The notes: a model not told the origin generated them from the sequence alone. A DNA stretch of 64,000 bases from Desulfobacter sp. (GCA_036881925.1 JBAJNJ010000004.1:216100-280099), one strand, 5' to 3'; shown: positions 41,622 through 63,179, counted from the first letter of the stretch. Made by a program: numbers and translations.

Positions 41622-41695
41622 TGGCTGATCGTCCAATGGCAGGACTACGGACTCTGACTCCGTCAATCTAGGTTCGAATCCTAGTCAGCCAGCCA
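41622..41695 (+). tRNA. tRNA-Gln (anticodon CUG)
   Basis: The cloverleaf folds by hand. Acceptor TGGCTGA/TCAGCCA, D stem GTCC/GGAC, anticodon stem ACGGA/TCCGT with loop CT-CTG-AC, T arm CTAGG-TTCGAAT-CCTAG, discriminator G and an encoded CCA. Length 74 nt. Confidence 0.93.
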
Positions 41696-41711
41696 TCACT
41701 GAATATGAAAG

Positions 41712-41742
41712 GCTTTTGAGAATTTTTTCAAAAGCTTTTTTT
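41712..41742 (+). terminator. rho-independent terminator after tRNA-Gln
   Basis: GCTTTTGA (41712-41719) pairs with TCAAAAGC (41728-41735), followed by TTTTTTT. Confidence 0.65.
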
Positions 41743-42009
41743 GCTTTCAATCAATCTCGTTCCCACTTAACCTAGATATTTCATCAAGCTGTCCTATTGT
41801 AAAGTGTCACGCAATCTCAGGAAATCTGTCAGCCGATCTCAGATATTTAAAATTTTAAACGATACACTCTATACTCCGGATTTTTTGGCAGGCAGGAGTA
41901 TAATTTATAATTCGGATTTTCTAACGGCTTAACTGATGTGCCGCACCACGGTACTTGAAAAAGGCGGCTTTGTTGCTCGCGATCCTTTCCTGTGATGGGT
42001 TATATGATT

Positions 42010-42705: not shown

Positions 42706-43298
42706 ATAGTGTTCCTATTGGCACAAAACATCGCGAATCGGCCGCGCGGCTTTTTCTGTCTGCAACATTAGATTTAAATGATATCCGACAAGATAAAGAT
42801 TGATCGGACACATCCAAGAATAACGATTATTGGACATTAAATTGATTTTTCGGAAAAATCAAGAATCCGGTTTATATCTTATAAAGTTGATTCCTCGTTT
42901 ATAGATTTCATCCGGTATTAAAACGATTAAAGAGGCCCTATATTCCAACGAAAAAAGGATCTGCTGTCAAATTGTTTTTTATCTACGGCCCGAATCATTT
43001 TTCCCATGTAAAAAACGCAGGAAAGATGCGCCCATCACGCATCTTTTATTGACAATCCCATGAAAAGGAATAGACTGTTTTCAGCCGCATCTTTTGGGCG
43101 GCAGGCATGGAACACCATGGGTAAAACCTGCCGGATGATCGTCCAGACGTTCACGTATCATTCAATCCGGCTGACGATGTGATTTTCTGTTTGTTTCAGA
43201 TTTTCCTTTTGCACGCATCCCAGCGCATGAAGGATCGTTTCCAAAACGCATTAACAACCATTCATAACGGGGTGAATCATTCCCGGGGAGTTGGGCAT

Positions 43299-43670
43299 AT
43301 GGGGTTCGCACTTGAGCGGCATGACCATTATCTTGAAATTGTTTTTGACGGGGTTCTCGTAAAACAAACCATTCTTGAATCGTTGAACCAGTTGCTGAAC
43401 CACCCTGAGTATTATGAAAAACACTCCCTGTGGAATATGTCTGCAAGCCGCCTGGGATTTTCCATTGGTGATGCCAAGGAAATCATAGGGGTGATGCATC
43501 TGTTCAAGCCCAGGCAGAAGCACTTTGCCAACAAGTCCGTTCTTCTTGTCTCGGGCCCGATGGGCCTGTCAATGGTGAGAATGTTTACTGAAATGGCCCA
43601 GGACCTGCCATTTGAATTCAGCGTGTTTTCAGATCATTCCAAGGCCCGGGCCCACCTGGGGGACAATTAA
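43299..43670 (+). CDS. hypothetical protein (123 aa from the preferred start; ORF opens at 43179)
   Basis: GGGGAG lies 8 nt upstream of the ATG at 43299. The alternating pattern 'HYLEIVFDGVL...' suggests a small alpha/beta domain, possibly STAS-like. This is weak. Confidence 0.45.
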   Translation: MGFALERHDHYLEIVFDGVLVKQTILESLNQLLNHPEYYEKHSLWNMSASRLGFSIGDAKEIIGVMHLFKPRQKHFANKSVLLVSGPMGLSMVRMFTEMAQDLPFEFSVFSDHSKARAHLGDN

Positions 43671-43717
43671 AGGAAGCGATTTTTTATCCCGGCCGGCCCG
43701 GAAATTTTTGAGCCGGA

Positions 43718-45127
43718 TCATTTTGTGGGCACCTCATTGTCAATATCGGCATAGGCGTCGCCATCCCCTTCGGGAGGCTGTTCCCGGAGTTCCCTGGGCA
43801 GCACGATATTCAGGAATACAGCGGTCAACCCGCCTGTTGTGATGGCTGAGCCAAAAATCTGCCGGACCAGGTCCGGGAAAATTCCCAGGATTTCCGGGCG
43901 AAAGACCACGCCCAGGCCAAGCCCCAGGGAGATTGCCATGATCAGCACCCCTCTTCTGTCGATAATGCTGGAAGCAATAATCCGGATGCCTGAGGCTGCC
44001 ACAGTGCCGAACATGATAATGGTGGCCCCGCCAAGCACGGCATTGGGAAGGATTGAAAACAGGCCGCCCACCACCGGGAACATCCCGAACAACGCCAGAA
44101 GTCCGGCAATCCAGTATCCCACATGGCGGCTGGCCACCCCTGTCATCTGGATGACCCCGTTGTTCTGGCTGAAGGTTGTGTTGGGAAAAGAGTTGAACAC
44201 GGCGGCCAGCACGGAATTCACCCCGTCTCCGAACACCCCGCCCGCGATCCGTTTCAGGTACCCATCGCCTTTGATGGGTTCCCCGGAAACCATGGCCGTG
44301 GCGGTAAGGTCTCCGATGGACTCAACCGCTGTGATCATATAGAGCAATATCATGGGAATGACATGGCCCCAGGAAATATAAAACCCGAATTTAAAGGGCA
44401 CTGGTGCGGCAAAAACAGGCAGGGCAGACATTTTTTCAAACTGCACCAGCCCCATGGCAGCGGCGGCAAGATAGCCCGTTACCAGCCCGATCACGATGGC
44501 GCCCATGCGCAGCCACCGGTTCCGGGCCCGGTTCAGGGCAATGATGGTGATGATCACCAGGGATGCCAACCCCAGATTCACGGCATTGCCGTAAAGATCG
44601 GGCCTGTTGGTCAGCAGCCACTGGCCGCCGCCGATGTCGGTGATGCCCACCCGTATCAGGGACAGGCCGATAAGGGTGACCACAATCCCGCTGACAAGGG
44701 GAGTGATAATCTGCCTGAGCAGGGGAATAAAGCGGCTGAAAATCATTTCAACCGGGGCGCAGATCAGGGCCACCCCGAAAATGGTGCCCAGGGCCTGGCC
44801 TGTTGTGCCGCCCGCACTTTTTACGGACATGCCGATCCCGATGCAAAGCCCCAGGAAGGTGAAGCTGGTGCCCTGGATGCTGAGAAGCCCGGACCCGGCA
44901 GGACCGATTTTTTTAACCTGTATAAACGTGGCAAGCCCGGAAACGAAAAGGGACATGCTGATAATGTACGTTTTTTGATCCGGGGGCAGGTCCAGAGCGC
45001 CTCCGATGATCAGGGGCGGGGTGACAATGCCGATGAAAATGGCCAGCAAATGCTGGAGTGCAGCCAAGAACGACTGCCCGGCAGATGGCTTGTCGTTCAG
45101 CCCGATGATGATGTCAGAATTTTGCAT
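43718..45127 (-). CDS. nucleobase:cation symporter-2 (NCS2) family purine/xanthine-uracil permease
   Basis: 469 aa, about 13 TM helices. 'FLAALQHLLAIFIGIVTPPLII' and the 'NTTFSQNNGVIQMTGVASR' region are typical NCS2 motifs. Confidence 0.9.
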   Translation of the reverse strand: MQNSDIIIGLNDKPSAGQSFLAALQHLLAIFIGIVTPPLIIGGALDLPPDQKTYIISMSLFVSGLATFIQVKKIGPAGSGLLSIQGTSFTFLGLCIGIGMSVKSAGGTTGQALGTIFGVALICAPVEMIFSRFIPLLRQIITPLVSGIVVTLIGLSLIRVGITDIGGGQWLLTNRPDLYGNAVNLGLASLVIITIIALNRARNRWLRMGAIVIGLVTGYLAAAAMGLVQFEKMSALPVFAAPVPFKFGFYISWGHVIPMILLYMITAVESIGDLTATAMVSGEPIKGDGYLKRIAGGVFGDGVNSVLAAVFNSFPNTTFSQNNGVIQMTGVASRHVGYWIAGLLALFGMFPVVGGLFSILPNAVLGGATIIMFGTVAASGIRIIASSIIDRRGVLIMAISLGLGLGVVFRPEILGIFPDLVRQIFGSAITTGGLTAVFLNIVLPRELREQPPEGDGDAYADIDNEVPTK

Positions 45128-45991: not shown

Positions 45992-46222
45992 GTGTCAACG
46001 CCTGTCACACCGGATCCCCGGTCTTTTATAAGGCTTGCTGCCTCCCGTATGCCCTATGGCAAATACAAAGGGGTTCGCCTGGTGGACCTTCCCGAGGCTT
46101 ACCTGGTATGGTTTTCCAGAAAAGGGTTCCCAAAGGGAACGCTCGGGAAGGATTTGCAGGCAGTCTATGATATCAAGCGCAACGGCCTGGAACACCTGTT
46201 TAATCCACAACTCCCTAAGTAA
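45992..46222 (+). CDS. DUF3820-family protein
   Basis: 'MPYGKYKGVRLVDLPEAYLVWFSRKGFPKG' is the DUF3820 core. An in-frame GTG at 45992 avoids overlapping yheU. The ORF itself opens at 45956. Confidence 0.68.
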   Translation: MSTPVTPDPRSFIRLAASRMPYGKYKGVRLVDLPEAYLVWFSRKGFPKGTLGKDLQAVYDIKRNGLEHLFNPQLPK

Positions 46223-47645
46223 TATCCCCGCATTGGCGAAATTCAAATACCGACTTGGGCACACGGGTATTTTTGGCAATGGTCCGAAACGCGGTTCTCA
46301 ATCCTTCTTCCAGCACAGGGTGATAAAAGGGCATGGACAGAATCTGGTCGGCCGTCATTCCGGCGCCGGCAGCCCAGGCAATGAGATGGGCCAGGTGTTC
46401 GCCTGACGGGGCGATTATTTCAGCCCCGAGAAGCGCTCCTTTTTCCTTGTCCCCGTATATCCGCACCTTTCCCTTGTTCTGCCCCATGATCATGGCCCTG
46501 CCCTGGCGGGAAAAGTCAGCCTCCCCGATGATCATGTCTTGTCCTTCTTGGGCCAGCTCCTTGTATGATCTGCCCACCACGGCAATATTGGGAGATGAAA
46601 AGGTGATCTTCAGCGGCATGCGCCTGGCAAAGCAGGTGGCGGATTCAGCCATGGCATTGATACCTGCAATCCGTCCCTGGTCTGCGGCTTCATGGAGGAT
46701 GGGGCGCATGCGGTTGGCATCGCCGGCGATAAAGACCGGCAGATCCCCGATCTGAAGGGTGCCCGGATCAAACGCGGGCATCCCCATGGATCCCAGGCCA
46801 ACCCCCAGGTTTTCAAGCCCCATATCTGTCAACGGCGGCTTTCTGCCGGTGGCCAGGAGTACCTGTTCGACGTCCCGGATACGCTCTTCATCCATGTCAC
46901 CGGCCTTATCCCTGCATCCCACACGCAGCATCCCATTGGCGTTGCCAAGGATTTCAGCACTTCCCTTGATGATGTCCAGTTCCTTTGAAAAAATGTCCAG
47001 GGCCAATTCCTGGAGCACCGGGTCGGAAAGCCCGCCCACACGGTTGCTCCGGGTAACGCCCGTCACCCGGATCCCAAGGCGGGCCATGGCCTGCCCCAGT
47101 TCAATCCCGATGGGGCCGAGGCCGAACACGGCCACATGCCGGGGCAGTTCCTCCAGCTCGAAAAACCGGTCCGTGTCCAGGATATAATCCGCATATGGTT
47201 GCCAGGGTTCGGGGATTGTCGGTTTTGATCCCACGGCGATGATGATGCGGCGGGCACGGATGGTTGTATCCCCGAGGTCAAGGGTGTTGGGGTCCAGGAA
47301 CCTGGCGCGTTTGGCAATGAAATGATCGTCCCAGGCCGCCATTCCCCGGACCACCCCCCCGGCGAACCGGTCCCGGAGGTGCCGGACCCGGGCCATGACA
47401 GTGCGCGGGTCCGGAGAAAGTCCTGCAGCGCCGTCAATCCCGTAAATATCAAAGACACGGCGTTTGTGAAAAGTATTGGCAATTTCAATCAGGGCTTTTG
47501 ACGGCATGCACCCGACCCGGGCACAGGTGGTGCCGAGAATACCGTCGTCAATCACCACATAGTTGTCCGTATGTTTTGCCACTTCCGCCCGGGCGGTGAG
47601 ACCCGCGGTTCCCGCACCAATAATCGCAACATCATAATGTTTCAT
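46215..47645 (-). CDS. dihydrolipoyl-dehydrogenase-family FAD-dependent pyridine nucleotide-disulfide oxidoreductase
   Basis: 'DVAIIGAGTAGL', the redox disulfide 'GTTCARVGCMPSK', a second Rossmann motif 'VAVFGLGPIGIE', and a dimerisation domain ending in an HP(V/T)L-type motif. Confidence 0.85.
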   Translation of the reverse strand: MKHYDVAIIGAGTAGLTARAEVAKHTDNYVVIDDGILGTTCARVGCMPSKALIEIANTFHKRRVFDIYGIDGAAGLSPDPRTVMARVRHLRDRFAGGVVRGMAAWDDHFIAKRARFLDPNTLDLGDTTIRARRIIIAVGSKPTIPEPWQPYADYILDTDRFFELEELPRHVAVFGLGPIGIELGQAMARLGIRVTGVTRSNRVGGLSDPVLQELALDIFSKELDIIKGSAEILGNANGMLRVGCRDKAGDMDEERIRDVEQVLLATGRKPPLTDMGLENLGVGLGSMGMPAFDPGTLQIGDLPVFIAGDANRMRPILHEAADQGRIAGINAMAESATCFARRMPLKITFSSPNIAVVGRSYKELAQEGQDMIIGEADFSRQGRAMIMGQNKGKVRIYGDKEKGALLGAEIIAPSGEHLAHLIAWAAGAGMTADQILSMPFYHPVLEEGLRTAFRTIAKNTRVPKSVFEFRQCGDIT

Positions 47646-47739: not shown

Positions 47740-49377
47740 TTAGAAATCCGGATCCTTATCTGGGGGCAGCGCTGCTTTGCGGGACGGCGGCAGTGAGAGC
47801 CGGTCCGGTCCGCCCGGCGTCTCCGGCCGGTGGGACGGGGCCCCGGAGGCACGTTCCCTGCGACCATTGATCAATGCCACAAGATCACGCATCAGGGCTT
47901 TCATGGTTTCGGCCTGTGCATTCAACTCTTCGGCGGATGATGCGGATTCCTCGGCATTTGCCGCATTCTGCTGCACCACCTTGTCCATCTGGGAGACCGA
48001 GGTGTTGACCTGGGAAATACCGTCGGACTGCTCCTGGGAGGCCCTGGAAATTTCAAAGATCAGCTTGCCGACCCGGTCCGAACTTTCAGAAACATTGACA
48101 AATGCCTTGTGGGTGCCGGCAACAATTTCAGCCCCTTCAGCCACCTTTGTCATTGTTCCCTCGATGAGTTCGGCCGTGTCCCTGGCCGCTTCCGCCGACC
48201 GCATGGCCAGATTGCGGACCTCGTCGGCCACCACGGCAAATCCGGCCCCGGCCTCACCGGCCCTGGCCGCTTCCACGGCCGCATTCAGGGCCAGAAGATT
48301 GGTTTGGAATGCAATTTCATCAATGGTTTTGATGATCTTGGCGGTTTCCTCACTGGCCTGGGAAATCCCTTCCATGGATTGGGTCAGGGCCGTCATGGAC
48401 TTGTTGGCCTCACTGACCACCTGGTTGGCCTCTTTCATCAGGACATCGGCATGCCCGGCATTTTTTGCGTTTTTCTGGGTCATGGACGACATCTCTTCCA
48501 TGGACGAGGAGGTTTCCTCAATGGAGGCGGCCTGGTCCGAAGCACCTTCGGCCAGGATCTGGCTTGAAGAGGAGACCTGGTTGGCGGCACAAGAGACCTG
48601 CCCGGCCCCTTCGTTGAGATTGTCGATAATATTGCCGATGGGTTTGGTGATACCCCGCCGGACCACAATGAAAAAGATGAGAATGGTTGCCATGATGCCC
48701 ATTACAGCAATGGCCCCGGCTTTGAGAAGGTTCTGCCGCAAATGGGCGTCTGCCGGGCCAAGGTCCTGGATCACCTCAAACGCGCCATGGATTTCCCCGG
48801 CTTTCCACCCTTCCATCTTGCTGCCCGTGGGATCGGTACCGTCGGTATTTCCCCACAGGACATTGGAATTTGCCGGATCACCGTGGCAGAGCAGGCAGGT
48901 ATCTGTCAGCCGTACCGCCCGGAACACCCGGATGGTGTTGGTGGCATCGTCAATAATCACATAATCCGGGGTATTGGTCTTTTTCATGGTGTTCAATGCC
49001 TCGGCCTCAACCGCATCCGGCTCGTTCTCCGGATTCCTGGGCTGGAATTTCGGCACCCGGAATTCATACCCCAGCTTTTCCGCCTGTTCATAGGCAGCCT
49101 GCCAGGAAGCCACCACCGGCACCATGGATAGAATCTTGTCTTTTTCCCCCTGGTCTGCAAAGGCCCGCATCATTTCCGGCGTCATGATGCCCTGCTGCCA
49201 TTTTTTCTCCATCTCCCTGCGGACGGATTCCGTCAGCAGGCAGATGGTCTCGGCCTTGTCAATATCGAATTTAATCGTTCCTTTCCGGTCATCCACCCCG
49301 TAAAGCACGAATAATACGGAGCATAACGCCACCATGGTCCCGATCCCCACCAAAAGAATTTTTTTCATCAGACTCAT
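47740..49377 (-). CDS. methyl-accepting chemotaxis protein with a periplasmic c-type-haem (CxxCH) sensor domain (DUF3365/Tll0287-like)
   Basis: TM1 (aa 7-27), a periplasmic domain with '[10 protein letters not shown]' (aa 159-168), TM2, HAMP, and an MCP signalling domain '[35 protein letters not shown]'. Confidence 0.88.
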
Positions 49378-49452
49378 TTGTAGTTGTTTCCTTTTTTTGA
49401 TTGCTGTACCCGTTCATCCCATATGCCCCCGATCAATATGGAATACCCGATA

Positions 49453-51000
49453 TTACCCCCTTCTCAGCATTCCGTTGTTCCGCTCATCAAGCGCCTTTCG
49501 TATGGCCGCGGCAATGTCCGAACGGCCCACGGGTTTGAAAAGCAGTTCACATACCCCCATCTCCCCGGCATGGTCGGGATCAATGGCTTCGGAAAATCCG
49601 GTGAGCAGGATCACCGGAAGATCATTTTTCTTTTCCCAGGCCTTTTCCGTCAGCACCAGTCCGCTCATTCCCGGCATGGTCATATCGGTAATCAGCAGGT
49701 CCACATCATTGGAAATCGCCTCAAGCGCCTTATCCGGATCCGTAAAGGCGCAGACCCTGTATCCCAGGGCCCCCAGGATTTTCTCAAGCATGTCTGCGAT
49801 GGCCGGTTCGTCATCCACCACCATGACATGCTCATTCCCCCCGATGACCTCTTGCTCGGCATCATCCGGCAGCACGCATTCATCGTACCGGACCGGCAGG
49901 TAGACCCTGAAGGTAGAGCCGTCACCCACCCGGCTCTCCACCGTGACGGCCCCGCCCAGCTCCCTGACAATGCCGTTGACCACGGACAACCCCATGCCGG
50001 TGCCCTTGCCGGCGGGCTTTGTGGTGAAAAAGGGTTTGAAAATCTTGCCCTGGATATCGGGGGGGATGCCGCACCCGTCATCACTGACTGCCAGTTCCAG
50101 GTATATGCTTCCCGGTTCCAGGCCGTTGGCAGCGGTTTCCGGGCAATAGTCCCCGAGGGTGACGGTCATCACCCCGCCAGCCTCGTCCATGGCATGTTTG
50201 GCATTGGTGCACAGGTTCATCACGACCTGGTGAATGGAAGTGGGATCGGCAATCACAATGCCGCACTCCGGGGTGATCACGGACCGGATTTTAATATTCG
50301 ACGGAAATGAGGCCTTGATCAGTTTCAGGGCCTCTTTGACGATCAAATTCATGGCCACGGGCTGTATGGGCTGGCGGCTCTGGCGGCTGAACGACAGGAT
50401 CTGCCCCACAAGCCGGCCGGCCCTGTGGGCGGCATTCCTGATTTCATTGGCATCTTCTGCCACTTCCGGATCAGGGTGGTCGGACAGCAGTTCGGCAAAG
50501 GCCTGGATTGGGAAAAGGATATTGTTGAAGTCATGGGCGATCCCCCCGGCAAGCGATCCCAATGCTTCCATTTTCTGGGCCTGGCGAATCCCGTCTTCCA
50601 GTTCCCGCCATTTGGCATCCAGATCGTCCAGACGATGCTTCTCGGCCACCTGGCGTTCCACCACACTGATCAGTTCTTCCATCTCAAAGGGTTTGGGGAT
50701 ATAGTCGTTGGCCCCGGCCCGCCATGCCCGGGTGATGTCCTTTGGCTGGGCCTTTGCTGTGAACATGACGATGCGGATATTCCTGAAGGCCACCTGTTCC
50801 CGGATTTTTTCCAGAACTTCAAGGCCGTCCAGCCCGGGCATCATCCAGTCCAGGAGGATGAGGTCCGGTTCGAATCCGGCAATTTTCTCCAGGCACGCTT
50901 CACCGCTTTCCACCACAAGCAGCGTATAATCATCCTCAAGAAATCCCGAAGCAACCATGCGGTTCTGGCGGTTGTCATCAACTATCATTATTTTCGACAT
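49453..51000 (-). CDS. hybrid two-component protein: receiver - HisKA/HATPase kinase core - receiver
   Basis: N-terminal REC ('IMIVDDN...LILLDWMMPGLDG...FTAK'), H-box 'GGIAHDFNNIL', G-boxes 'DDGCGI...GTGMGLS', and a C-terminal REC ('VMVVDDE...LLITDMTMPGMSG'). It overlaps the upstream kinase gene by 23 nt. Confidence 0.88.
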   Translation of the reverse strand: MSKIMIVDDNRQNRMVASGFLEDDYTLLVVESGEACLEKIAGFEPDLILLDWMMPGLDGLEVLEKIREQVAFRNIRIVMFTAKAQPKDITRAWRAGANDYIPKPFEMEELISVVERQVAEKHRLDDLDAKWRELEDGIRQAQKMEALGSLAGGIAHDFNNILFPIQAFAELLSDHPDPEVAEDANEIRNAAHRAGRLVGQILSFSRQSRQPIQPVAMNLIVKEALKLIKASFPSNIKIRSVITPECGIVIADPTSIHQVVMNLCTNAKHAMDEAGGVMTVTLGDYCPETAANGLEPGSIYLELAVSDDGCGIPPDIQGKIFKPFFTTKPAGKGTGMGLSVVNGIVRELGGAVTVESRVGDGSTFRVYLPVRYDECVLPDDAEQEVIGGNEHVMVVDDEPAIADMLEKILGALGYRVCAFTDPDKALEAISNDVDLLITDMTMPGMSGLVLTEKAWEKKNDLPVILLTGFSEAIDPDHAGEMGVCELLFKPVGRSDIAAAIRKALDERNNGMLRRG

Positions 51001-53908
51001 TTCTCTTCTCCTTGATTCCGTTGATCAGCGGCAGGGTAAACCGGAACGTGCTTCCCTTGCCGGGCTCACTTGTCACATGAATGGTTCCGCCCATCATTTC
51101 AACCAGTTTCCGCGAAATCGTCAGTCCCAGTCCGGTTCCCTCGGCCGTGCGGGAACTGCCGCCAAGCATCTCAAAGCGGTCAAATATCCGGACAAGGTCC
51201 TGCCTGTCAATGCCGCACCCGGTATCGGATACTGCAATCTCTGCAAGATGGCCGTTGATCTGGCGGCAACTGACCCGTATCACCCCTTCATTGGTAAACT
51301 TTATGGCATTGCCGATCAGGTTGAACAGAATCTGGTCCAGAAACTTCCTGTCCGCCCTGACATTGCGAATGGCCTTTGAGCAGTCCACGGACAAGGACAA
51401 TCCTTTTTGGACGGCCAGGCTTGAAATCCGCGACCGCATCTGGTCCAGGACCTCGGACAGGTTCAGCGATACAAATGTAAAGGAAATCCTGCCGGCTTCG
51501 ATCCTGGACAGGTCAAGCAGATCATTCACAATGGCGATCAGGTGCCGGGAGGATTCCAGGCCCTGGCCGGCCATCATCTTGATTTGCTCGGGATCTGTCC
51601 TGTTTTTTTCAATCTTGTTCACAATCAACTGGAAAAACCCGTGGATGCCGTTCAGGGGCGTCCGCAATTCATGGCTCATATGGGACAAAAACTCGCTTTT
51701 GGCCCGGTTGGCCTGCTCTGCGATGTCTTTTGCCCGTTGCAGGTTGTTTTCCATGCGCTGGCGCTGGAGGATACTCCACATGGTGGACATGAATACCACC
51801 AGCCGGTTGGCGTCGTTTTTCCCGTAAGGTGCTTTTTTGTTGCCCACCCCTGCCACGGCAACCACGTTGTCCCCGTCAAACACGGGTACGCTCATGTGCC
51901 GGTAAACCGGGAAATGCCCCTCGGGCATGCCCTTTTTATTGGGCAGGTTGGGATAGTCGTTATGGATCACGGCCTCGCGCGCCTCAATGCAGTCCACCCA
52001 GACCCCGGCCTCGCTGATGGGATAATGGGAGGCTTTGATAGCGGTGCATTTGTCCATGGTGCCCCGGGACCAGGTAAACAATCTCAGGGTTTCCTGGTCC
52101 GAATTTACAAAATGCAGATACCCGATTTCGCTGTCCGTGAGGCGGACCGCCTCTTCCAGAGAAAAATCAACAATTTCCTTTTCCGTTTTATCCTTCATCA
52201 GGCTGATGACCAACAGGGATTCCAGTCGCTCTTCATTTAATTTGAGTTCAATGTTGGCATCACGAAGCTCCTTGGTCCTGTCCCGGACCTGGTCTGTCAG
52301 TGCCTGCCTGTGTTTCTCAAGAGCTTCTTCGGCCAGTTTCCGCTTGGTGATGTCCATATGGGTCACGACCATGCCCCCGCTGCCGTCTTCCAGGGGGATG
52401 ACCCACAGCAGGAACCACCGCCGTTCATCAGGGGAATCACAGGGATATTCCCAGATAAAAATATCAGCAGTCCTTTCCATGACGGCCTTAAGGCCTGCCG
52501 TCACCTTGATATCGCCTGCCCGTTCACATACCTCAAAGTAGTTGGCTCCAAGACCTGTACATGCGATATCCCCCCCGTTCTCCAGGGTAAAATTATTCCA
52601 TCGCTGGTTGGTTGCCATGATGTTGCCCGTGGCATCCAGTACGGCGATATTCAGGGGAAGGGCATTGAGCACCTCCTGCATGGCCGACTCAAAATCCTTT
52701 GCCTTTGTGATGTCGCTGATGGTCCCGATGAACCCCAAAAGCGTTCCTGCAGAATCCCTCTGGGGAACTGCCCGGCCCGCAAGCCAAGTGGTCCGGCCGT
52801 CCGGCCTGTGGAACCGGTAATCAAGCCGGAACATCCGATCCTCCCGAACGGCATCCGCCCATTCCTGCCGCAGCCGCCCCCGATCATCGGGGTGGACCGC
52901 CGATTCCCAACCCTTGCCCAATGCCTGGTAAAGCGTCATGCCCGATACTGTTTTCCAGGTCTGGTTCACCCAGACACATTGGCCGTCCGGATCGGTACGG
53001 AAAATCCCCACTGGACTCAACAGGGCCAGGGACTCGTAACGGGCAGCACTTTCACCCAGCCGGACATTCAGCGACCGGATGGAGGCATACCGCCAAAAAA
53101 ACATCATTAGGAGCGTCACAAAAAGTCCACCGCCCATGATTACAGCGACCCGCCGGGGGGTCCAGAACGGTTCGGGCAATCCGTGCCAGCGCAAATAAAT
53201 TTCCCGGTACTCCGGGGAGCCCACAAAGGTATCAATGGCATGGTTCAGCGTGTTGACCAGGTATTGGCGCTCCAGGCAGACGCCGATGGCGCGTTTGATT
53301 TCCTTCAGGGGCGGGCCCGCCACCTGTATGCGGTCTGCAACACCTGCATTTTCCGCAATCTGAAGGATCACTGGCTCAGGATACACCAGGGCATCGATAC
53401 GCCCGGACAACAGCCCCTGGAACAATGCCTGTTCCGGATCGTCAAATACCACCGCCTCTGCACCGGGATATTGACGGACAATAGCAGCACCTGCATTCCG
53501 GCGGCCCACCCCGACCCTTCCCCGATCCGGCTTTTCAGGCATGACTGCCCCAAACGCCCCTTTTCGTACAAACATGGATATGGGGTAGGTTTCCAGGGGA
53601 CGGGTAAACCGGCAGTACAGTTTCCGCTCGGGCGTAATGCCCATATTCGGCACAATATCCGTGTTGCCGCTCTCCAAGGCCTTAAATACATCGTCCCAGG
53701 TGCCTCTGGCCTCGTATTCAATCCGCAGCCCGGCAATGGCCGCCACCCGGTCCATTACCTCAATGGCAAACCCGGTGGGCTCGCCCTGGTCATTCAGGCT
53801 GTACTGGGGGGGGAAACTGGCCGGCACCACGGCACGCAGCACATCTGTTTCCGCGCCCGCAGGCATGGCCGCAGCCATCAAGAACCAGAACACCACCCAT
53901 GGTCTCAT
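50978..53908 (-). CDS. sensor histidine kinase: signal peptide - periplasmic solute-binding (SBP family 3) domain - TM - PAS - PAS - GAF - HisKA - HATPase
   Basis: 976 aa. 'LRAVVPASFPPQYSLNDQGEPTGFAIEVMD' is SBP_bac_3-like. The TM helix is 'VAVIMGGGLFVTLLMMFFW'. Two PAS-like blocks and a GAF-like block follow, then H-box 'SHMSHELRTPLNGI' and 'DTGCGI...GTGLGLTISRKLVEMMGG'. The start overlaps the kaiB stop (ATGA). Confidence 0.88.
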   Translation of the reverse strand: MRPWVVFWFLMAAAMPAGAETDVLRAVVPASFPPQYSLNDQGEPTGFAIEVMDRVAAIAGLRIEYEARGTWDDVFKALESGNTDIVPNMGITPERKLYCRFTRPLETYPISMFVRKGAFGAVMPEKPDRGRVGVGRRNAGAAIVRQYPGAEAVVFDDPEQALFQGLLSGRIDALVYPEPVILQIAENAGVADRIQVAGPPLKEIKRAIGVCLERQYLVNTLNHAIDTFVGSPEYREIYLRWHGLPEPFWTPRRVAVIMGGGLFVTLLMMFFWRYASIRSLNVRLGESAARYESLALLSPVGIFRTDPDGQCVWVNQTWKTVSGMTLYQALGKGWESAVHPDDRGRLRQEWADAVREDRMFRLDYRFHRPDGRTTWLAGRAVPQRDSAGTLLGFIGTISDITKAKDFESAMQEVLNALPLNIAVLDATGNIMATNQRWNNFTLENGGDIACTGLGANYFEVCERAGDIKVTAGLKAVMERTADIFIWEYPCDSPDERRWFLLWVIPLEDGSGGMVVTHMDITKRKLAEEALEKHRQALTDQVRDRTKELRDANIELKLNEERLESLLVISLMKDKTEKEIVDFSLEEAVRLTDSEIGYLHFVNSDQETLRLFTWSRGTMDKCTAIKASHYPISEAGVWVDCIEAREAVIHNDYPNLPNKKGMPEGHFPVYRHMSVPVFDGDNVVAVAGVGNKKAPYGKNDANRLVVFMSTMWSILQRQRMENNLQRAKDIAEQANRAKSEFLSHMSHELRTPLNGIHGFFQLIVNKIEKNRTDPEQIKMMAGQGLESSRHLIAIVNDLLDLSRIEAGRISFTFVSLNLSEVLDQMRSRISSLAVQKGLSLSVDCSKAIRNVRADRKFLDQILFNLIGNAIKFTNEGVIRVSCRQINGHLAEIAVSDTGCGIDRQDLVRIFDRFEMLGGSSRTAEGTGLGLTISRKLVEMMGGTIHVTSEPGKGSTFRFTLPLINGIKEKRNVENNDS

Positions 53909-54189
53909 CCATCCGCCTCTATTTTCAACGCCGCCAGCAGCTTGTCCGTGTCCGCCATATCACCGGCCACATAGCTCGGGGGCAATGGTGTGGCAACAAC
54001 CAGCATGGGCGTAATATACACCTCATTTTTCAGGGCGATTTCCGGATCTTTGAGTACGTCGATAATCTCCATGCAATACTTGTCTTTCAGATATTTCCGG
54101 CAGATTTTATTCAGATGCTGCTTGGCCTTGACCGAGTTGGGCTGGTTATCCGCGACGAACAACATCAACTGGTACGGTTTATCATTCAT
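53905..54189 (-). CDS. kaiB: circadian clock protein KaiB homolog
   Basis: 94 aa. 'LMLFVADNQPNSVKAK' and 'IDVLKDPEIALKNEVYITPML' align to cyanobacterial KaiB ('LKLYVAGNTPNSVRAL', '[21 protein letters not shown]'). Confidence 0.9.
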   Translation of the reverse strand: MNDKPYQLMLFVADNQPNSVKAKQHLNKICRKYLKDKYCMEIIDVLKDPEIALKNEVYITPMLVVATPLPPSYVAGDMADTDKLLAALKIEADG

Positions 54190-55780
54190 GACGTTCTCCT
54201 CCCCTGCTGACGGCCCTGGCGGCCCGGCCTTTTTTCAGGGTATTCCGGGCAGCCTTCAGGTATTCCAGCTCTCTTTCACGTTCTTCAATCTGCTGTTCAA
54301 GCTTTAATGCTTCAGCCGCTTCCTTTTCCTCCAGGACTTTGCGCGCGGTGCCGGTCAGCACCCTGCCCCCTCCGATATACACCGCCATCAGTTCAACGCC
54401 CGCATCGGTAATCAGGTACTCCCTGTATTGGTTGGAATGCTTTGATCCCCGTGACTTCAGGCAAATCAGGGTCCGGTTGATCTCACCGGTTTCCTCTGTC
54501 ATATGAAGGGAAAGCGCGGCATCGATAATCGAAGAAATTTCAATTCCCGAGCGCTCCTGAATGGAGCTCGCTTCCACGGTCTGATTCAAGAGGAGACAGG
54601 TGATCCCCCGCTCCTTGGCAAGGTTGAGCAGGCGGACCACATAATCAAATGCCGCTTTTTCAGATCCCATTCGCTTGCAAGCGGAAATCGCATCCACCAC
54701 GATATGGTCCGGTTGATATGTTTCAATTTCCTTAAAAGCCCTGAGCAGGTGTTCTTCCGCCCCCATGGCCTCGGGCAGTCCAGAGATATACCTGAAACTG
54801 CCGGATTCATAGGCGGGCTGCAAATCAATCCCCGGGGACAGCATATTGCTCATCATGGCCTGCCTGGACTCTTCAAAAGAGATATACAGCAACGTTTCCC
54901 CCTTGCCGCAGACCTCCCGGGCAAAGGTCGCGGCCATGGAAGTCTTTCCCGTACCGGTCGCCCCGGCAATGAGAACGGAAGAGGCCCTCCGGTATCCGCC
55001 CCCGAGCACATCATCCAGTTCTTCCAGTCCTGAAGAAACAAACGCTCCCAGCGGCTTGTGCCGGAGCCCCAGGGTGGATATGGGAAGAATGCGGACCCCG
55101 CCCGGTCCAATGGAATAGGGGTACTCGTTTCTCCCAAACCCCGATCCCCTGAATTTTTTCACCCGCAGCCGCCGGGTGGTGACCTGATCGATCACCCGCT
55201 GATCCAGTTGTATGGCGCAGTCCACATGGAAATCCATGAATCCGTATGCGGCAGGCACAGGGCCGTCGGGAATCTTGGCCGTCATCAGAGCAGTCATGCC
55301 GCAGGCATTAAATAGCTGATGCAGACGAAGCATTCCCTGCCGTTCCTCTTCCGGATCTTTGAACAGACTGAGCAGGACATCCAATGCATCCACAACAATC
55401 CGCACGGCCCCGATCTTTCCGGATGCTTCACTAATCGTATCCAGAAGCGCTTCGAAACCGGCCTCGCCGCTGCAAACCTTTTCAAAGGGCAACGTATTTT
55501 CCAGAAGCAACATCAGCCCCTTTTTTTCAAGGCGTTCCAGGTTCCACCCCAGAGTCAGGGCGTTCTGGCGGACCGCCGCCTTTTTCTCTTCAAAGGTGAT
55601 ATAAATACCCGGTTCCCCGTGGTCTGCACCATAACAGATAAACTGGAGCCCCATGACGGTTTTTCCGCAACCGGGCCCTCCTGATACAAGGCTGGTCCGC
55701 CCGGAAGGCAGTCCACCTTCCAGGATCTGATCCAGGCCCTCAATACCGGTTCTTGATTTGGGTAATTCAAAATTGGCCAT
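54182..55780 (-). CDS. kaiC: KaiC homolog (double RecA-like CI/CII ATPase) with a charged helical C-terminal tail
   Basis: 532 aa. 'TGIEGLDQILEGGLP'. Walker A 'GGPGCGKT' (aa 34-41) and 'GATGTGKT' (aa 273-280). Catalytic 'FEE' at aa 63-65 and 302-304. 'EISSIID' sits at the position of the cyanobacterial Ser/Thr phosphosites, and 'LKSRGSKHSNQYREYLIT' is present. Confidence 0.93.
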   Translation of the reverse strand: MANFELPKSRTGIEGLDQILEGGLPSGRTSLVSGGPGCGKTVMGLQFICYGADHGEPGIYITFEEKKAAVRQNALTLGWNLERLEKKGLMLLLENTLPFEKVCSGEAGFEALLDTISEASGKIGAVRIVVDALDVLLSLFKDPEEERQGMLRLHQLFNACGMTALMTAKIPDGPVPAAYGFMDFHVDCAIQLDQRVIDQVTTRRLRVKKFRGSGFGRNEYPYSIGPGGVRILPISTLGLRHKPLGAFVSSGLEELDDVLGGGYRRASSVLIAGATGTGKTSMAATFAREVCGKGETLLYISFEESRQAMMSNMLSPGIDLQPAYESGSFRYISGLPEAMGAEEHLLRAFKEIETYQPDHIVVDAISACKRMGSEKAAFDYVVRLLNLAKERGITCLLLNQTVEASSIQERSGIEISSIIDAALSLHMTEETGEINRTLICLKSRGSKHSNQYREYLITDAGVELMAVYIGGGRVLTGTARKVLEEKEAAEALKLEQQIEERERELEYLKAARNTLKKGRAARAVSRGGERHE

Positions 55781-56326
55781 CTGCTATCCCCATTGGTTGA
55801 TACTCGATTTACGGCACACGGCTTTTGCAGACGTTTTCGCAGGGTATTCCGGCAGCCCTGTCAAGGCAACGTCCGTGGACATACCGGTACGGATACGAAA
55901 AAAAGGGGCGACGATCGCCTGTGTAGTTGTTGTGCAGGGCAACCCGTTTTGTGAAAGGATTACACGCAAATCATCCCCTGCTCTGCTGCCGGATATTTCC
56001 TCAGGCCGGGGCTGCTGTAAAAAGGGGCAATTTAATCTGTAGCCAGCCCCCGTTCAGACGATTATCACCGACAGCCTTTTGGGTTTACGATTCACGCCGT
56101 TAGCGGCGAAACTCCAGGGAAGCGGCGCCTTGGATTCTGAGACCAACAGATATCAGGGACACAAGTACTCTCATTTCTGGCTAAATGTTGCGAATCGTTT
56201 CCCTATGATCATTGCTATGTTTATTTTCTTAATGAGTCGATTCTTTTTTTATAGGCCAAAAGCCCTGTAAAATCAATAAAAAAGTAAAAGAAGACAAGGG
56301 GGGGAAAATCTCAGGCAGACCAGGTA

Positions 56327-56874: not shown

Positions 56875-59121
56875 TCAATCCGGATTTACAGGCTCCAGCC
56901 GGCAGGGCACAAACCGGTGCAGGGGGGTTCCCAGAGGATCCCTGTGGGTGTTCAGGGTCAGCCGGTTCACGTTGATGCCGTGGACCCGGCCCTGGTAATT
57001 GAGGCCGAACCCGTGGGGGACCAGGACCATCCCGGACCGCACATCCGGGCGGATCTCGATCTCGCCGGTTTCGCTGCCGGCTGCAGTGGTGATTTTCGCT
57101 GGTTCCCCGTCCTTGAGCCCCAATGTTTTTGCATCGTTGCCGTTCACGGCAATGGTACAGTCCCGCCGGCCGCCATTCCACTCCGGGTTCCGCATCAGGG
57201 AATTCATGTTGTACCGGGTGTGGCGGCCCGCATTGAGGACCAAGGGGAATTCCCCGGGCAGGTCAAGGTCCCGGGCTTCGTCCGCCGGGTTCAGGTCCCG
57301 GGCCTGGTCGGCCAGTTCAGGGATGAAAATCTCCATGCGGCCGGATTCGGTCTTGATATCGGCCATGGGATTTTCCGTGTCCGCACGGCCCACCCAGAGG
57401 CCCTGGGGCGTGTCCACCAGGGCCTGGAAAATCTTGTCCCCCTGGAGCATGTCCGGTTCAAACCCGGCTCTTGCCCCATGCTGCCGGAATTGTTCCGGTG
57501 CAGTCATAAGCAGCCCCCACAAGGCGGCTTTGGCTGCGGAATCCCATTCTTTGCCAAGGGTCTTGGCCAGGACAAAGGGAATTGCCTTAAATGCCCGGGG
57601 CTCCTTGGACGCCCAGGTCATCAATTCCCCGCCAAATGCCATGCGGTCGCCTTTTGCCGCCTCATACAGGGCATCCGGAATTTCAGGAATCAGCCCGAGG
57701 CGGTCGGCCAGGCCGGTATGGATCTGGGCCGCTTCCAGGCATTCCCCGGGAACCGGCACCACGGGCCGGCGCAACTGCATATACACCTCCGGGTATGTCC
57801 AGGGAAAAAAGGTGGTGTCCCAGGACTCGTAAAACGACCGGCAGGGCAATACATAATGGGCCAGCCGCGCGGTTTCGCTCATGACAATGTCGTTGACCAC
57901 CAAAAGATCCAGGTGGCTGAACGCCTTTTCATAGGCAGTGGTGTCCGGGTAGGCCCGCAAGGGGTTGCAGGCGGACACATACACGGCCCTGAGCCGGTCG
58001 GGACGGCCGGAAAGAATCTCTTCGGGCATGACCGCCGGGGGAAACGATCCGGCAGCTGCCGGGGGCATATCCGTGGCCACGGTCTTCCAGACCTTGGGGT
58101 TCCGTTCATCCGCATGAAAGCCCATGGGCATGACCATGCCCGGGATCATATTGCCCCCGGGGGTCTGGAATACCCCGCACACCGCCCCCAGGATGTGGAG
58201 CAGGTAGGAATTGAGGGTGGAGTGGCGCCCCATGTAAATTCCCAGGTCCTGGTGAAAACTCCATTGCTTGGTGGCCATGAGGCGGCAGAGTTCAAACACC
58301 TCTTCATATGCCAGGCCGCAGACCTCGATGGCCTTTCGATAGTCAAATGCCTCAAACCAGGGGCGGACCCGGTCCCAGCCATCTACATGGGCGTCCAGGT
58401 AGGCTTCGTTCTCACATCCCTTTTCCAGAATCAAGGCGATCATGGCCTTGATGAGCAGGGCATCAGTGCCCGGCCGCAGGGCCAGGTGCATGTCGGCGAT
58501 GGCAGCGGTTTCGCTGCGGCGGGGATCAATGGAGACCAGGGTGCGTTCCGGATCTTTTGAGATTTCCCTGAGCACCAGGGGCGCCCGGGGCATCTGGTGG
58601 CTTTCCATGCCGTTCCATCCCCAGGCCACCAGCATTTCCGTATTGTGCTCATCCGGCCCGCTGATGTTGTACTGCTTGCCCATGACCCGGCCGGTCACCC
58701 ACCAATGGCCGGAAAACTCCTGGCCTGCGGACGAATAATAATACTGGGACCCCATGCCCCGAAGCAGGCTCAGGCCGAACCCCGCCTCCATGTGGCCGCC
58801 CTGGGAACTGCCGCCCATATAGGCCAGGGACCTGGGGCCGTGCTCATCCACAATGGTTTTCATCTTCCCGGCGATTTCATCCAGGGCCTGGTCCCAGGAA
58901 ATCCGTTTGAATTCACCGTTCACCCGCTTGAGCGGATGGGTGATCCGGTCTGCCGGGTATTGGTGAAAGGGAAGTTTCAGCCCCTTGCGGCAGGCATAGC
59001 CTTTTGACCTGGGGTTTTCCCTGTCCGGTTTCACCCGGGTAATCCTGTCCTCTTCCACAAGCACACGCAGTCCGCAGTTCTGGGCGCACAGTACGCACCC
59101 GGTGGTTTTCCACGTTCCCAT
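56875..59121 (-). CDS. molybdopterin (bis-MGD) oxidoreductase, cytoplasmic, MopB superfamily
   Basis: N-terminal 4Fe-4S Mo/W-bisMGD-type motif 'CVLCAQNCG...YACRKG', followed by molybdopterin-binding and C-terminal dinucleotide-binding barrel regions. No twin-arginine signal. Start at 'MGTWKTTG' has a GGAGGG RBS. Confidence 0.85.
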   Translation of the reverse strand: MGTWKTTGCVLCAQNCGLRVLVEEDRITRVKPDRENPRSKGYACRKGLKLPFHQYPADRITHPLKRVNGEFKRISWDQALDEIAGKMKTIVDEHGPRSLAYMGGSSQGGHMEAGFGLSLLRGMGSQYYYSSAGQEFSGHWWVTGRVMGKQYNISGPDEHNTEMLVAWGWNGMESHQMPRAPLVLREISKDPERTLVSIDPRRSETAAIADMHLALRPGTDALLIKAMIALILEKGCENEAYLDAHVDGWDRVRPWFEAFDYRKAIEVCGLAYEEVFELCRLMATKQWSFHQDLGIYMGRHSTLNSYLLHILGAVCGVFQTPGGNMIPGMVMPMGFHADERNPKVWKTVATDMPPAAAGSFPPAVMPEEILSGRPDRLRAVYVSACNPLRAYPDTTAYEKAFSHLDLLVVNDIVMSETARLAHYVLPCRSFYESWDTTFFPWTYPEVYMQLRRPVVPVPGECLEAAQIHTGLADRLGLIPEIPDALYEAAKGDRMAFGGELMTWASKEPRAFKAIPFVLAKTLGKEWDSAAKAALWGLLMTAPEQFRQHGARAGFEPDMLQGDKIFQALVDTPQGLWVGRADTENPMADIKTESGRMEIFIPELADQARDLNPADEARDLDLPGEFPLVLNAGRHTRYNMNSLMRNPEWNGGRRDCTIAVNGNDAKTLGLKDGEPAKITTAAGSETGEIEIRPDVRSGMVLVPHGFGLNYQGRVHGINVNRLTLNTHRDPLGTPLHRFVPCRLEPVNPD

Positions 59122-59267
59122 ACTCCCTCCAGATCTTTTGGGTTCCATTTGATATGCCGCCGTTTGTCCTTTATTCCAAGGCCTTGGCAATTTCCCCAGG
59201 CGGCCCTGCCGCCGCCTGAATATTTAATGATGATCTGACAATACGGGTTGCGCAGGCAAAAGAAAAG

Positions 59268-59281
59268 TGTCATTAATGACA
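59268..59281. promoter_or_regulatory. 14-bp palindrome in the divergent Mo-enzyme / AraC regulator intergenic region (candidate operator)
   Basis: TGTCATTAATGACA is a perfect palindrome, 40 nt upstream of the regulator start. Confidence 0.3.
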
Positions 59282-59320
59282 AATATTGTGCAAAAAAAGA
59301 CTTTTTAATGGGGATAAAAT

Positions 59321-60307
59321 ATGGCGAAAATTACCTTATGGGTCGGGGACGGAAGTCTGGCATCCAGTATTACGACCCTTATGGATGCCTTTTCCATTGC
59401 CGGTCTCTGGCAAAAGGCCCTGGTACCGGACAGCAAGGGCGACTTGTTTGACACACAAATCGTGACCACGGACGGCAGGCCCGTGACCGCTTACGGCAAC
59501 ATCCGCATCAGCGCCCACAGCGCCGCTGCAGACGTTAAAGAAACCGACTGTGTGGTGGTCTCTCCCATTCTGCCCAGTATCACGCCGGTCCCGGACGACC
59601 TTCCCGGGCTGAGCCGCCGATTGCGCGCCTTAAGGGAAAACGGCACCACCCTGGCCACGGTCTGCACCGGCACCTTTGTTCTTGCGGAAATGGGGCTTCT
59701 GGACGGGAAACGGGCCACCACCAACTGGCAGTATGCCCGGATGTTCAGGAAACGCTATCCCAAGGTCAGGCTGGAGTCCTCCTACATGCTTACCGAAGAC
59801 GACAACATCATCTGCGCCGGGGCAGCCACGGCCGTGTACAACCTGGCCCTTCACCTGATCCGGCGGTTCGGCTCCCAGCACCTGGCATCGGTCTGCGCCA
59901 AGGCCCTGCTCGTGGATCCCAACCGGATCAGCCAGGCCCCTTATGCCACGGCCATGCCCCTGCGCCACCACGGCGACGACCAGGTCCTTACGGCCCAGGC
60001 CATGATTGAAAAAAAATACGCGGCCATTGACACCATTGACGACCTGGCGCGGGATGTGGGCATCAGCCCCCGGCACTTCAAACGCCGCTTTAAAAAAGCC
60101 ACGGGCGAACTGCCGCTGAAATACCTCCAGCGGGTCAGGGTGGAAGCGGCCAAGGAAATGCTGGAAACCACCCGGAAGAGTATCGACAAAATCACCTGGG
60201 CTGTGGGCTACAAGGATGTCAGTTCATTCTGCCGCCTGTTCAAGCAGCATACCCAGATTTCTCCCAGGAGTTACCGGGATAAGTTTTACATCCAGGTGCC
60301 CTGGTAA
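59321..60307 (+). CDS. GlxA-type AraC-family transcriptional regulator (DJ-1/PfpI-like N-domain plus AraC HTH)
   Basis: The N-terminal ~190 aa are GATase1/DJ-1-like ('LATVCTGTFVLAEMGLLDGKRATTNW'). C-terminal HTH: 'ARDVGISPRHFKRRFKKATG' and 'VGYKDVSSFCRLFKQHTQISPRSYR'. Confidence 0.86.
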   Translation: MAKITLWVGDGSLASSITTLMDAFSIAGLWQKALVPDSKGDLFDTQIVTTDGRPVTAYGNIRISAHSAAADVKETDCVVVSPILPSITPVPDDLPGLSRRLRALRENGTTLATVCTGTFVLAEMGLLDGKRATTNWQYARMFRKRYPKVRLESSYMLTEDDNIICAGAATAVYNLALHLIRRFGSQHLASVCAKALLVDPNRISQAPYATAMPLRHHGDDQVLTAQAMIEKKYAAIDTIDDLARDVGISPRHFKRRFKKATGELPLKYLQRVRVEAAKEMLETTRKSIDKITWAVGYKDVSSFCRLFKQHTQISPRSYRDKFYIQVPW

Positions 60308-60392
60308 ACGGCAGGCAGCCTGTCTGCGGGTGATGACCTGTCAGCGAAGAGGCGCTTGTCAGTTGGTGAGACCTGTCAGCAGGAAGTGCTTA

Positions 60393-63177: not shown

Positions 63178-63179
63178 GG

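Follow-up and report, generated by a model that had tools for sequence, protein, structure and literature searches.

A predicted KaiC2-type kaiC-kaiB operon of a few Desulfobacterales lineages, accompanied by two histidine kinases and a putative haem-c chemoreceptor

Among the described Kai systems, the closest to the locus reported here is the operon of Rhodopseudomonas palustris and Rhodobacter sphaeroides (PDB 8DBA, 8FWI, 8FWJ), in which kaiC, kaiB and a sensor kinase gene follow one another and KaiA is lacking. This arrangement has already been named the 'kaiC-B-PAS/HK operon' (Ma et al. 2016; HK, histidine kinase), and the R. sphaeroides kinase was noted by Schmelling et al. KaiC proteins of the KaiC2 type are marked by a Ser-Ser instead of a Ser-Thr phosphosite and by a C-terminal extension (PMC5520375, PMC10076222), and that of R. 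sphaeroides autophosphorylates independently of KaiA and forms, with KaiB, an ATP/ADP-driven hourglass (PMC10076222). In Pseudomonas, KaiC physically binds the PAS domain of the neighbouring kinase, with stress resistance as the phenotype (bioRxiv 10.1101/2022.01.26.477890), and kinase-flanked kaiBC clusters reported in magnetotactic Desulfobacterota and Nitrospirota have been proposed to track daily chemical gradients (PMC10278575). The inputs and outputs of non-cyanobacterial KaiBC are largely open, the partner kinases being known as conserved neighbours and from one interaction study in Pseudomonas. Here, we describe a cassette of kaiC, kaiB, two histidine kinase genes and a gene for a methyl-accepting chemotaxis protein (MCP) with a predicted haem-c sensor domain, located in a 64,000-nucleotide stretch of Desulfobacter sp. 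DNA (GCA_036881925.1, JBAJNJ010000004.1:216100-280099). This whole stretch is called the window, and positions are counted from its first nucleotide.

The five genes are co-directional and occupy positions 47740-55780, minus strand:

54182-55780, minus strand: kaiC, 532 amino acids
53905-54189, minus strand: kaiB, 94 amino acids
50978-53908, minus strand: sensor histidine kinase, 976 amino acids
49453-51000, minus strand: hybrid kinase with receiver-histidine kinase-receiver (REC-HK-REC) layout, 515 amino acids
47740-49377, minus strand: haem MCP, 545 amino acids

All five translations match, with 100% identity, the NCBI proteins MEH0019354-58 (Prokaryotic Genome Annotation Pipeline) encoded on a 341 kb contig of a 'Desulfobacter sp.' metagenome-assembled genome, so that the apparently anaerobic host supposed in a preliminary description of the window is indeed an anaerobe-type Desulfobacter. 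The list of open reading frames (ORFs) and the junction sequences likewise agree with the arrangement given there. The kaiC stop and kaiB start overlap over 8 nucleotides (ATGAATGA) and the kaiB stop and 976-residue kinase start over 4 (ATGA), and the coordinates give a 23-nucleotide overlap between the two kinase genes and a 75-nucleotide gap between the hybrid kinase and MCP genes. Although the overlaps stand as described, the translational coupling that had been read from them does not follow: they are compatible with coupling but no proof of it.

The reading that we consider probable is that the locus represents a KaiA-independent KaiBC module of the KaiC2 type, organized as the customary operon, and that a small clade of Desulfobacterales has extended it into a five-gene signalling cassette. 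What is new is that, in a narrow group of lineages, KaiBC is accompanied by a two-kinase cascade and a chemoreceptor of predicted haem-c type; most of the remainder is standard for non-cyanobacterial KaiBC.

KaiC and KaiB of the cassette

The kaiC product matches the KaiC domain PF06745 twice (Pfam, 1.5e-98) and, with 492.2 bits, passes the NCBIfam KaiC model NF006799 (cut-off 408 bits), whereas it fails the cyanobacterial equivalog TIGR02655 (278.9 bits, cut-off 546). The best PDB sequence matches are to R. sphaeroides KaiC (8DBA, 8FWI and 8DB3, 343-348 bits), compared to 264 bits for Synechococcus elongatus KaiC. Consistently, the top Foldseek matches of the KaiC model are the dodecameric R. 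sphaeroides structures, with the alignment continuing through the C-terminal tail (8FWI, 8DBA). Alignment with the KaiC proteins of S. elongatus (identical to PDB 1U9I) and R. sphaeroides located the Walker A motif GPGCGKT (55658-55678), the Glu-Glu motif TFEE (55586-55597) and the Walker B motif VVDALD in the CI domain, and the corresponding GTGKT (54941-54955), SFEE (54869-54880) and VVDAIS in CII. The CI stretch at residues 92-116, aligned to the B-loop region of S. elongatus KaiC, is of about equal length. The predicted phosphosites S416 and S417 (within 54524-54541) align with S413/S414 of R. sphaeroides and S431/T432 of S. elongatus; a Ser-Ser pair is present in 94 of the 98 aligned KaiC sequences, which comprise the related loci, the window and the two references. 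Judged by these features, the kaiC product is a real double-domain KaiC of the Ser-Ser 'KaiC2' type with intact catalytic motifs.

The tail following R480 comprises 52 amino acids, which is longer than in S. elongatus (24) and shorter than the family median (78), and carries a deletion of ~29 residues relative to the longer members that is common to the closest relatives. AlphaFold predicts a single helix at residues 477-525 (54206-54352), with a mean pLDDT (predicted local distance difference test) of 84 for the whole protein and block values of 84-92 over residues 481-520. The Ser-Ser phosphosite and a predicted helical C-terminal extension are shared with the R. palustris and R. sphaeroides systems, which also give the best sequence and fold matches, whereas the tail falls ~29 residues below the typical length for the family. 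The subgroup assignment is drawn from the Ser-Ser pair, the tail, the scores of the curated models and a neighbour-joining tree with S. elongatus and R. sphaeroides KaiC as references; in this tree, the window KaiC falls into a small clade.

A different origin of the 'KaiC', namely a generic RecA-superfamily ATPase (RadA/Sms-like or DnaB-like) brought next to the other genes by chance, could be seen in its weak secondary matches to RadA (73 bits), DnaB_C and AAA models. Such matches are, however, expected of any RecA-fold P-loop protein, and the profile comparison points clearly the other way: both domains match KaiC, NF006799 is passed at 492 bits, and the kaiB gene overlaps the kaiC stop, a pair that recurs in 75 of the 80 loci surveyed below. 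We give this alternative almost no probability; a RecA-family identity is ruled out by the NF006799 score and the PDB sequence and fold matches, all the top ones being KaiC.

The kaiB product can likewise be called a real KaiB, based on its sequence. It carries the KaiB domain PF07689 (57.9 bits against a cut-off of 27, 8.5e-16) and matches KaiB structures in the PDB, that of R. sphaeroides among them, at 1e-16 to 1e-12, and its gene overlaps the kaiC stop, all of which agrees with the earlier identification. It remains below the cut-offs of the NCBIfam cyanobacterial KaiB equivalogs (62 against 110 and 59.5 against 145 bits).

With the cyanobacterial KaiABC and SasA/CikA-RpaA system, the locus shares homologous KaiC and KaiB and kinases as candidate readout. 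It differs in the reversed gene order, in the failed TIGR02655 match and in the Ser-Ser rather than Ser-Thr site of KaiC, as well as in the lack, in the 64 kb window, of KaiA, of a SasA-type KaiB-like domain and of an OmpR-type regulator. A search of all window ORFs and six frames with S. elongatus KaiA (checked against PDB 5N8Y) gave nothing above chance. Our own KaiB, REC and HK hidden Markov models (HMMs), run on all stop-to-stop ORFs, matched solely the five cassette genes and a second MCP gene; since no further REC, HK or KaiB-like domain is found, the window encodes no SasA-like or OmpR-type regulator. The absence of KaiA, SasA, CikA and RpaA from the window that had been remarked on thus holds, but carries little weight, because 64 kb represent a small part of a genome of several Mb.

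Family norms and the cassette in relatives

One genome per species was scanned using an alignment of KaiC; the best 80 loci, at 38-55% identity, were retained and annotated with our own ORF calls and HMMs. They span Desulfobacterota, Chloroflexota, Acidobacteriota, Nitrospirota, Bacteroidota, Verrucomicrobiota and Planctomycetota, and further include proteobacteria, two cyanobacteria and two methanogens. Of the 80 loci, 75 have kaiB behind kaiC on the same strand. Where >1.2 kb of sequence is available past kaiB (67 loci), the gene directly after it encodes a kinase, PAS or receiver protein in no fewer than 56 cases; several of the others are parsing artefacts. Considering these counts and the published operons, the reversed gene order, the absence of KaiA, SasA, CikA and RpaA, and the coupled kinase are family norms. 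The order of kaiC before kaiB, to which the preliminary description had drawn attention, is therefore present but not a special feature of this locus. The kaiC-kaiB-kinase part of the cassette is the usual operon form of the non-cyanobacterial Ser-Ser ('KaiC2-type') family, as already described.

Within this form, the window locus differs from the R. sphaeroides type in several respects. Loci of that type in the surveyed set usually contain two kaiB genes and one HK-REC kinase gene, whereas the window has one kaiB, a transmembrane kinase with solute-binding protein (SBP), PAS, PAS and GAF domains, a REC-HK-REC kinase and an MCP; moreover, it occurs in a sulfate reducer that is strictly anaerobic and non-phototrophic. 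Two tandem kaiB genes ahead of the kinase were observed in 28 of the 75 kaiC-kaiB loci (L007-L086), including the Rhizobiales/R. sphaeroides-like group, the two cyanobacteria and the two methanogens.

The MCP gene sets the cassette apart from the wider family. Within 10 kb, the 80 other KaiC loci contain no MCP gene, and the MCP link is thus clade-specific rather than a family trait. In L005 and L006, which are of Desulfobacterales type and do not belong to these 80, a kaiC-kaiB-kaiC-PAS-HK cluster is followed on the same strand, at a distance of 3-7 kb, by genes for REC-HATPase, CheY-like and CheA proteins. No other CheA was seen in the surveyed kai neighbourhoods. This arrangement is a second, independent Kai-chemosensory neighbourhood.

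The members of the clade are arranged as follows, with identities to the window proteins; L087/L144-147 and L148 were added by scanning metagenomes with the MCP and by searching a database for the hybrid kinase:

L139 and L140: KaiC 64% identical; kaiC-kaiB-SBP..., then contig end
L141-143: KaiC 62% identical; kaiC-kaiB-GAF-HK-REC...
L004 (Desulfamplus): KaiC 62% identical; REC-HD-GYP, kaiC, kaiB, GAF-HK, REC-HK-REC, REC-REC
L001-3: KaiC 68% identical; kaiC-kaiB-haem MCP and, upstream on the divergent strand, PAS-GAF-HK, REC-HK-REC and small REC
L087/L144-147: no kaiC nearby; kaiB, SBP-PAS-GAF-HK (60% across the full length of 975 residues), hybrid kinase (68%), 150-residue REC, MCP (72%)
L148: HK, hybrid kinase, REC, MCP

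Orthology in these loci is supported by identities of 73% over the full length for the MCP, 52-62% for the REC-HK-REC kinase and 52-60% for the GAF-containing kinase. Orthologs of both kinases adjoin kaiBC in L004, L141 and L139 and lie within 8 kb of it in L001. The L001 ortholog of the GAF kinase (60%) is without the SBP and transmembrane parts, and that of L004 (52%) consists of GAF-HK alone. As in the window, kaiB overlaps the start of the kinase gene in L139, L141 and L144. The MCP gene is part of the cassette in four of the five lineages with an ortholog, in two gene orders and among different flanking genes: it directly follows kaiB in L001-3 and follows the hybrid kinase gene in the window, L144 and L148. 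The kinase and MCP genes of the cassette are thus syntenic in relatives. We conclude that the five-gene cassette of kaiC, kaiB, GAF kinase, REC-HK-REC kinase and haem-c MCP, seen only in a few Desulfobacterales lineages, is conserved but not obligatory.

A gene for a REC-HD-GYP regulator lies beside the kai cassette in L001 (5900-6910, minus strand) and in L004 (613-1644, plus strand), but not in the window. The protein is likely a c-di-GMP phosphodiesterase and would be a candidate output towards motility or biofilm control.

Kinases, chemoreceptor and candidate output

In the Pfam search, the 976-residue kinase contains SBP_bac_3, two PAS, GAF_2, HisKA and HATPase_c domains, with one transmembrane segment at residues 252-273, and the hybrid kinase, which is soluble, contains Response_reg, HisKA, HATPase_c and Response_reg domains. 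Their features are located as follows:

53180-53836, minus strand: periplasmic SBP_bac_3 domain of the 976-residue kinase, behind a signal-like N-terminus
52697-53044, minus strand: first of the two PAS domains of the 976-residue kinase
51764-52189, minus strand: GAF domain of the 976-residue kinase
51026-51703, minus strand: HisKA-HATPase of the 976-residue kinase, with the H-box SHELRTP at 51656-51676
50659-50991, minus strand: first receiver domain of the hybrid kinase, acceptor Asp in LLDWMMP
49891-50562, minus strand: HisKA-HATPase of the hybrid kinase, H-box AHDFNN
49486-49836, minus strand: second receiver domain of the hybrid kinase, acceptor Asp in ITDMTMP

The acceptor His of the hybrid kinase and the acceptor Asp in both of its receiver domains are present; neither an Hpt domain nor an output domain was detected in this protein by Pfam. 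In a database search, eight clusters at 90% identity, including the window's own, match it over the full length at >=50% identity. The GAF, HK and receiver modules that the two kinases together contain may resemble the GAF-HK-pseudoreceiver layout of CikA. A DNA-binding domain was found by Pfam in none of the five cassette proteins, so the earlier observation that the coupled signalling proteins have no DNA-binding output is borne out.

The MCP combines a Tll0287-like domain (PF11845, 101 bits) with an MCPsignal domain (PF00015, 153 bits):

48769-49263, minus strand: Tll0287-like/sCache_haem periplasmic domain, with CLLCH at 48883-48897
47977-48435, minus strand: MCP signalling domain

The haem-c motif CLLCH (residues 161-165) aligns with CLACH of Tll0287 (PDB 5B82), and two hydrophobic/transmembrane segments (residues ~3-30 and ~216-244) flank the sensor domain. 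The proteins of the five MCP-ortholog lineages are 69-81% identical to each other in pairwise comparison, and CLLCH is found at residue 161 in all five. The more distant Tll0287-MCPs (<=47% identity; L089-L092, L097, L106 and L126) have no kai neighbours. The Tll0287/DUF3365 family has been reclassified as haem-c Cache (sCache_haem), a signalling-linked member of which shows properties of a nitric oxide (NO) sensor (bioRxiv 10.64898/2026.02.01.703092). The window protein, a predicted haem-c Cache chemoreceptor, resembles the Geobacter MCPs GSU0582 and GSU0935 described in the same study in its periplasmic Cache-type domain, strictly conserved CXXCH and fusion to an MCP. It differs from them in that no HAMP domain was detected by Pfam and in its neighbourhood, no Kai association having been described for the sCache_haem family. 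The second MCP of the window (16002-17636, minus strand, 544 amino acids, HAMP and MCPsignal) is unrelated to the haem receptor.

Two further described systems resemble parts of the cassette. In Pseudomonas, the KaiC-like gene is nearly always found beside a kinase or hybrid kinase, together with a response regulator that has a single domain, and without a DNA-binding output. In contrast to the window, where both are present, that study (bioRxiv 10.1101/2022.01.26.477890) reported no kaiB beside the kaiC genes and no chemoreceptor. The multicellular magnetotactic Desulfobacterota and the magnetotactic Nitrospirota, in turn, are anaerobic or microaerophilic sediment bacteria, some of the same order, with multiple HK-flanked kaiBC clusters, but the reports on them (PMC10278575) concern gene copies and kinase neighbours alone, with neither an MCP link nor a two-kinase cassette.

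From these elements, the following route can be proposed. By homology with R. sphaeroides, KaiC would autophosphorylate at S416/S417 without KaiA, with the helical C-terminal tail helping, and KaiB, on binding to ADP-state phospho-KaiC, would accelerate dephosphorylation. The KaiBC pair may thereby report elapsed time or the ATP/ADP ratio, acting as an externally driven hourglass rather than a free-running clock. The overlap of the genes and their conserved neighbourhood point to modulation of the GAF-containing kinase by the KaiB/KaiC state; this kinase would also integrate a periplasmic solute via its SBP domain and cytoplasmic signals via the PAS and GAF domains. The basis for centring this link on KaiB is that the overlap between the kaiB and kinase genes persists in the lineage with no kaiC nearby (L144). 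The 976-residue kinase would then pass phosphate to the REC-HK-REC kinase in a two-tier cascade, to which the relatives add a small single-domain receiver, and the haem-c Cache MCP, co-inherited and probably co-transcribed, would contribute periplasmic NO/redox sensing. The net output would be behavioural, as taxis or a motility lifestyle switch, or would run via a regulator encoded elsewhere rather than a DNA-binding protein of the operon; the REC-HD-GYP protein of the relatives points likewise to motility control. In its full form, the proposal is that of a KaiBC hourglass or energy gauge which, in a small group of Desulfobacterales from marine habitats or sediments, would be wired via KaiB to a two-kinase cascade and an NO/redox-sensing MCP, such that time of day or energy state gates taxis or motility, a behavioural, post-translational instead of transcriptional Kai output in a non-photosynthetic obligate anaerobe. 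We regard this full form as unlikely.

Several observations weigh against the proposed route and, in part, against the cassette as a functional unit. Every member is assigned its role by homology and gene neighbourhood. The tail of KaiC, ~29 residues short of typical members, makes an R. sphaeroides-like dodecamer uncertain. Neither Che proteins (CheA, CheW, CheY) nor an Hpt domain or terminal regulator were found among the products of the 64 kb window, which leaves the path from the kinases to behaviour undefined. In the L144 lineage, represented by seven contigs from several samples, no kaiC is found in 6.8 kb upstream or 10 kb downstream. Orthologs of the hybrid kinase in L150 (63%) and L149 (50%) have no kai neighbour, and neither a kai nor a kinase gene was seen in the 2 kb examined upstream of the MCP ortholog of L088. 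Furthermore, because the lineages are fairly close (60-73% amino-acid identity), shared descent without selection could explain part of the synteny. In view of the kaiC-less lineage and of the two hybrid kinases and one MCP without kai neighbours, the term 'hard-wired', used earlier for the connection between Kai proteins and kinases, is too strong.

These exceptions bear most directly on the chief rival explanation, namely that the SBP/GAF kinase, the REC-HK-REC kinase, the small receiver and the haem MCP form a self-sufficient solute and NO/redox module with Kai as an optional modulator. Such autonomy would account for L144-147, which keep kaiB, kinase, hybrid kinase, REC and MCP with no kaiC nearby, for L150 with its hybrid kinase and no kai genes, and for Candidatus Magnetomorum (L149), in which the hybrid ortholog is paired with a 1883-residue SBP-PAS kinase and no kai genes lie within 10 kb. 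However, in four lineages, the kaiC-less one included, the kinase gene begins within the end of kaiB, and the L144 locus has retained the promoter-like element of the kaiC-containing loci, which suggests secondary loss of kaiC. Moreover, in L001-3 the kinases have been relocated, whereas the MCP remains beside kaiC-kaiB, and kinase genes follow kaiB across many phyla. We consider an autonomous module improbable.

The second rival explanation dispenses with time-keeping: KaiBC would be a regulator of stress or energy state, similar to those of Legionella and Pseudomonas, the kinases would act on a distant transcription factor, and the MCP would be a functionally unrelated neighbour, co-expressed or passed on jointly with KaiBC. 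The non-cyanobacterial KaiC homologs investigated to date indeed affect stress resistance, and their phosphorylation tracks culture age rather than time of day (bioRxiv 10.1101/2022.01.26.477890); the lack of an MCP in all 80 other KaiC loci, the MCP ortholog of L088 away from kai genes and the lack of che genes in the window are also in line with it. Yet the MCP has been kept in the cassette in four of five lineages despite rearrangement and differing flanks, the nearest solved KaiC, that of R. sphaeroides, is an ATP/ADP-driven hourglass (PMC10076222), and CheY and CheA genes lie a few kb downstream of the kaiC-kaiB-kaiC-kinase cluster on another contig of Desulfobacterales type. A stress regulator with an unrelated MCP appears to us doubtful.

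The KaiC2-type operon extended into a five-gene cassette represents a compact and unusually explicit candidate pathway, with a defined extracellular SBP input, a haem-c Cache MCP as gas/redox receptor, two kinases and no transcription factor. Its hosts inhabit sediments and mats with strong daily swings of oxygen, sulfide and NO. No published link between KaiC and chemotaxis, MCPs or chemoreceptors was found in the open-access literature; if the proposed connection is true, it would be the first indication of Kai proteins steering taxis, and the four or five soluble proteins would be testable in vitro, with the kaiC-less variant as a ready-made comparison for the role of KaiB alone. If the connection is false, the locus amounts to an ordinary kaiC-kaiB-kinase operon like many others.

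Upstream region and neighbouring genes

Two sequence elements were noted upstream of kaiC:

56248..56276, minus strand: promoter-like element, consisting of a T-run, TTGATT (56276-56271), a 17-nucleotide spacer and TATAAA (56253-56248)
55907..55919, minus strand: terminator-like hairpin GGCGATCGTCGCC followed by a T-run, found by pattern scan in the putative leader, ~130 nucleotides before the kaiC ATG

The promoter-like element lies ~470 nucleotides before the kaiC ATG and would imply a long leader. An alignment (A2) shows it to be kept in L001 and L002, where it precedes kaiC, and in L144, where it precedes kaiB, with copies at about 9760-9800 in L001 and about 6440-6480 in L144. This conservation suggests that the element may function as a promoter, even though a consensus promoter scanner missed it. 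Scans for promoters and terminators gave counts no different from chance, which do not settle the operon boundaries; with that limit, the pattern scan found no terminator-like site in the 75-nucleotide gap between the hybrid kinase and MCP genes. The putative 465-nucleotide kaiC leader folds no better than shuffled sequences (z = 0.35), and Rfam, at gathering thresholds, gave no match in the leader, finding a tRNA-Gln alone.

Downstream of the cassette, a pyridine nucleotide-disulphide oxidoreductase gene (46215-47645, minus strand) begins 94 nucleotides past the MCP stop, with no terminator-like site in between, and may be co-transcribed with it; it is absent after the MCP in L001-3 and L144. 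Farther downstream, region 43718-45127 encodes a xanthine/uracil permease. The tRNA-Gln gene (41622-41695) is followed by the stretch of lowest GC content in the window (0.42 compared to ~0.53; region 41622-44000). This stretch, in which an ORF at 42010-42705 has no Pfam match, may be a small tRNA-adjacent insertion. Upstream of the cassette, region 56875-63959 encodes a molybdopterin oxidoreductase, an AraC-type regulator and subunits of the xanthine dehydrogenase family (MoCoBD, FAD_binding_5). This context of purine/aldehyde oxidation around the cassette is not common to the relatives. The window also encodes FtsK, RNase J, Rho, Dxr and RseP, which places the locus in an ordinary chromosomal context.

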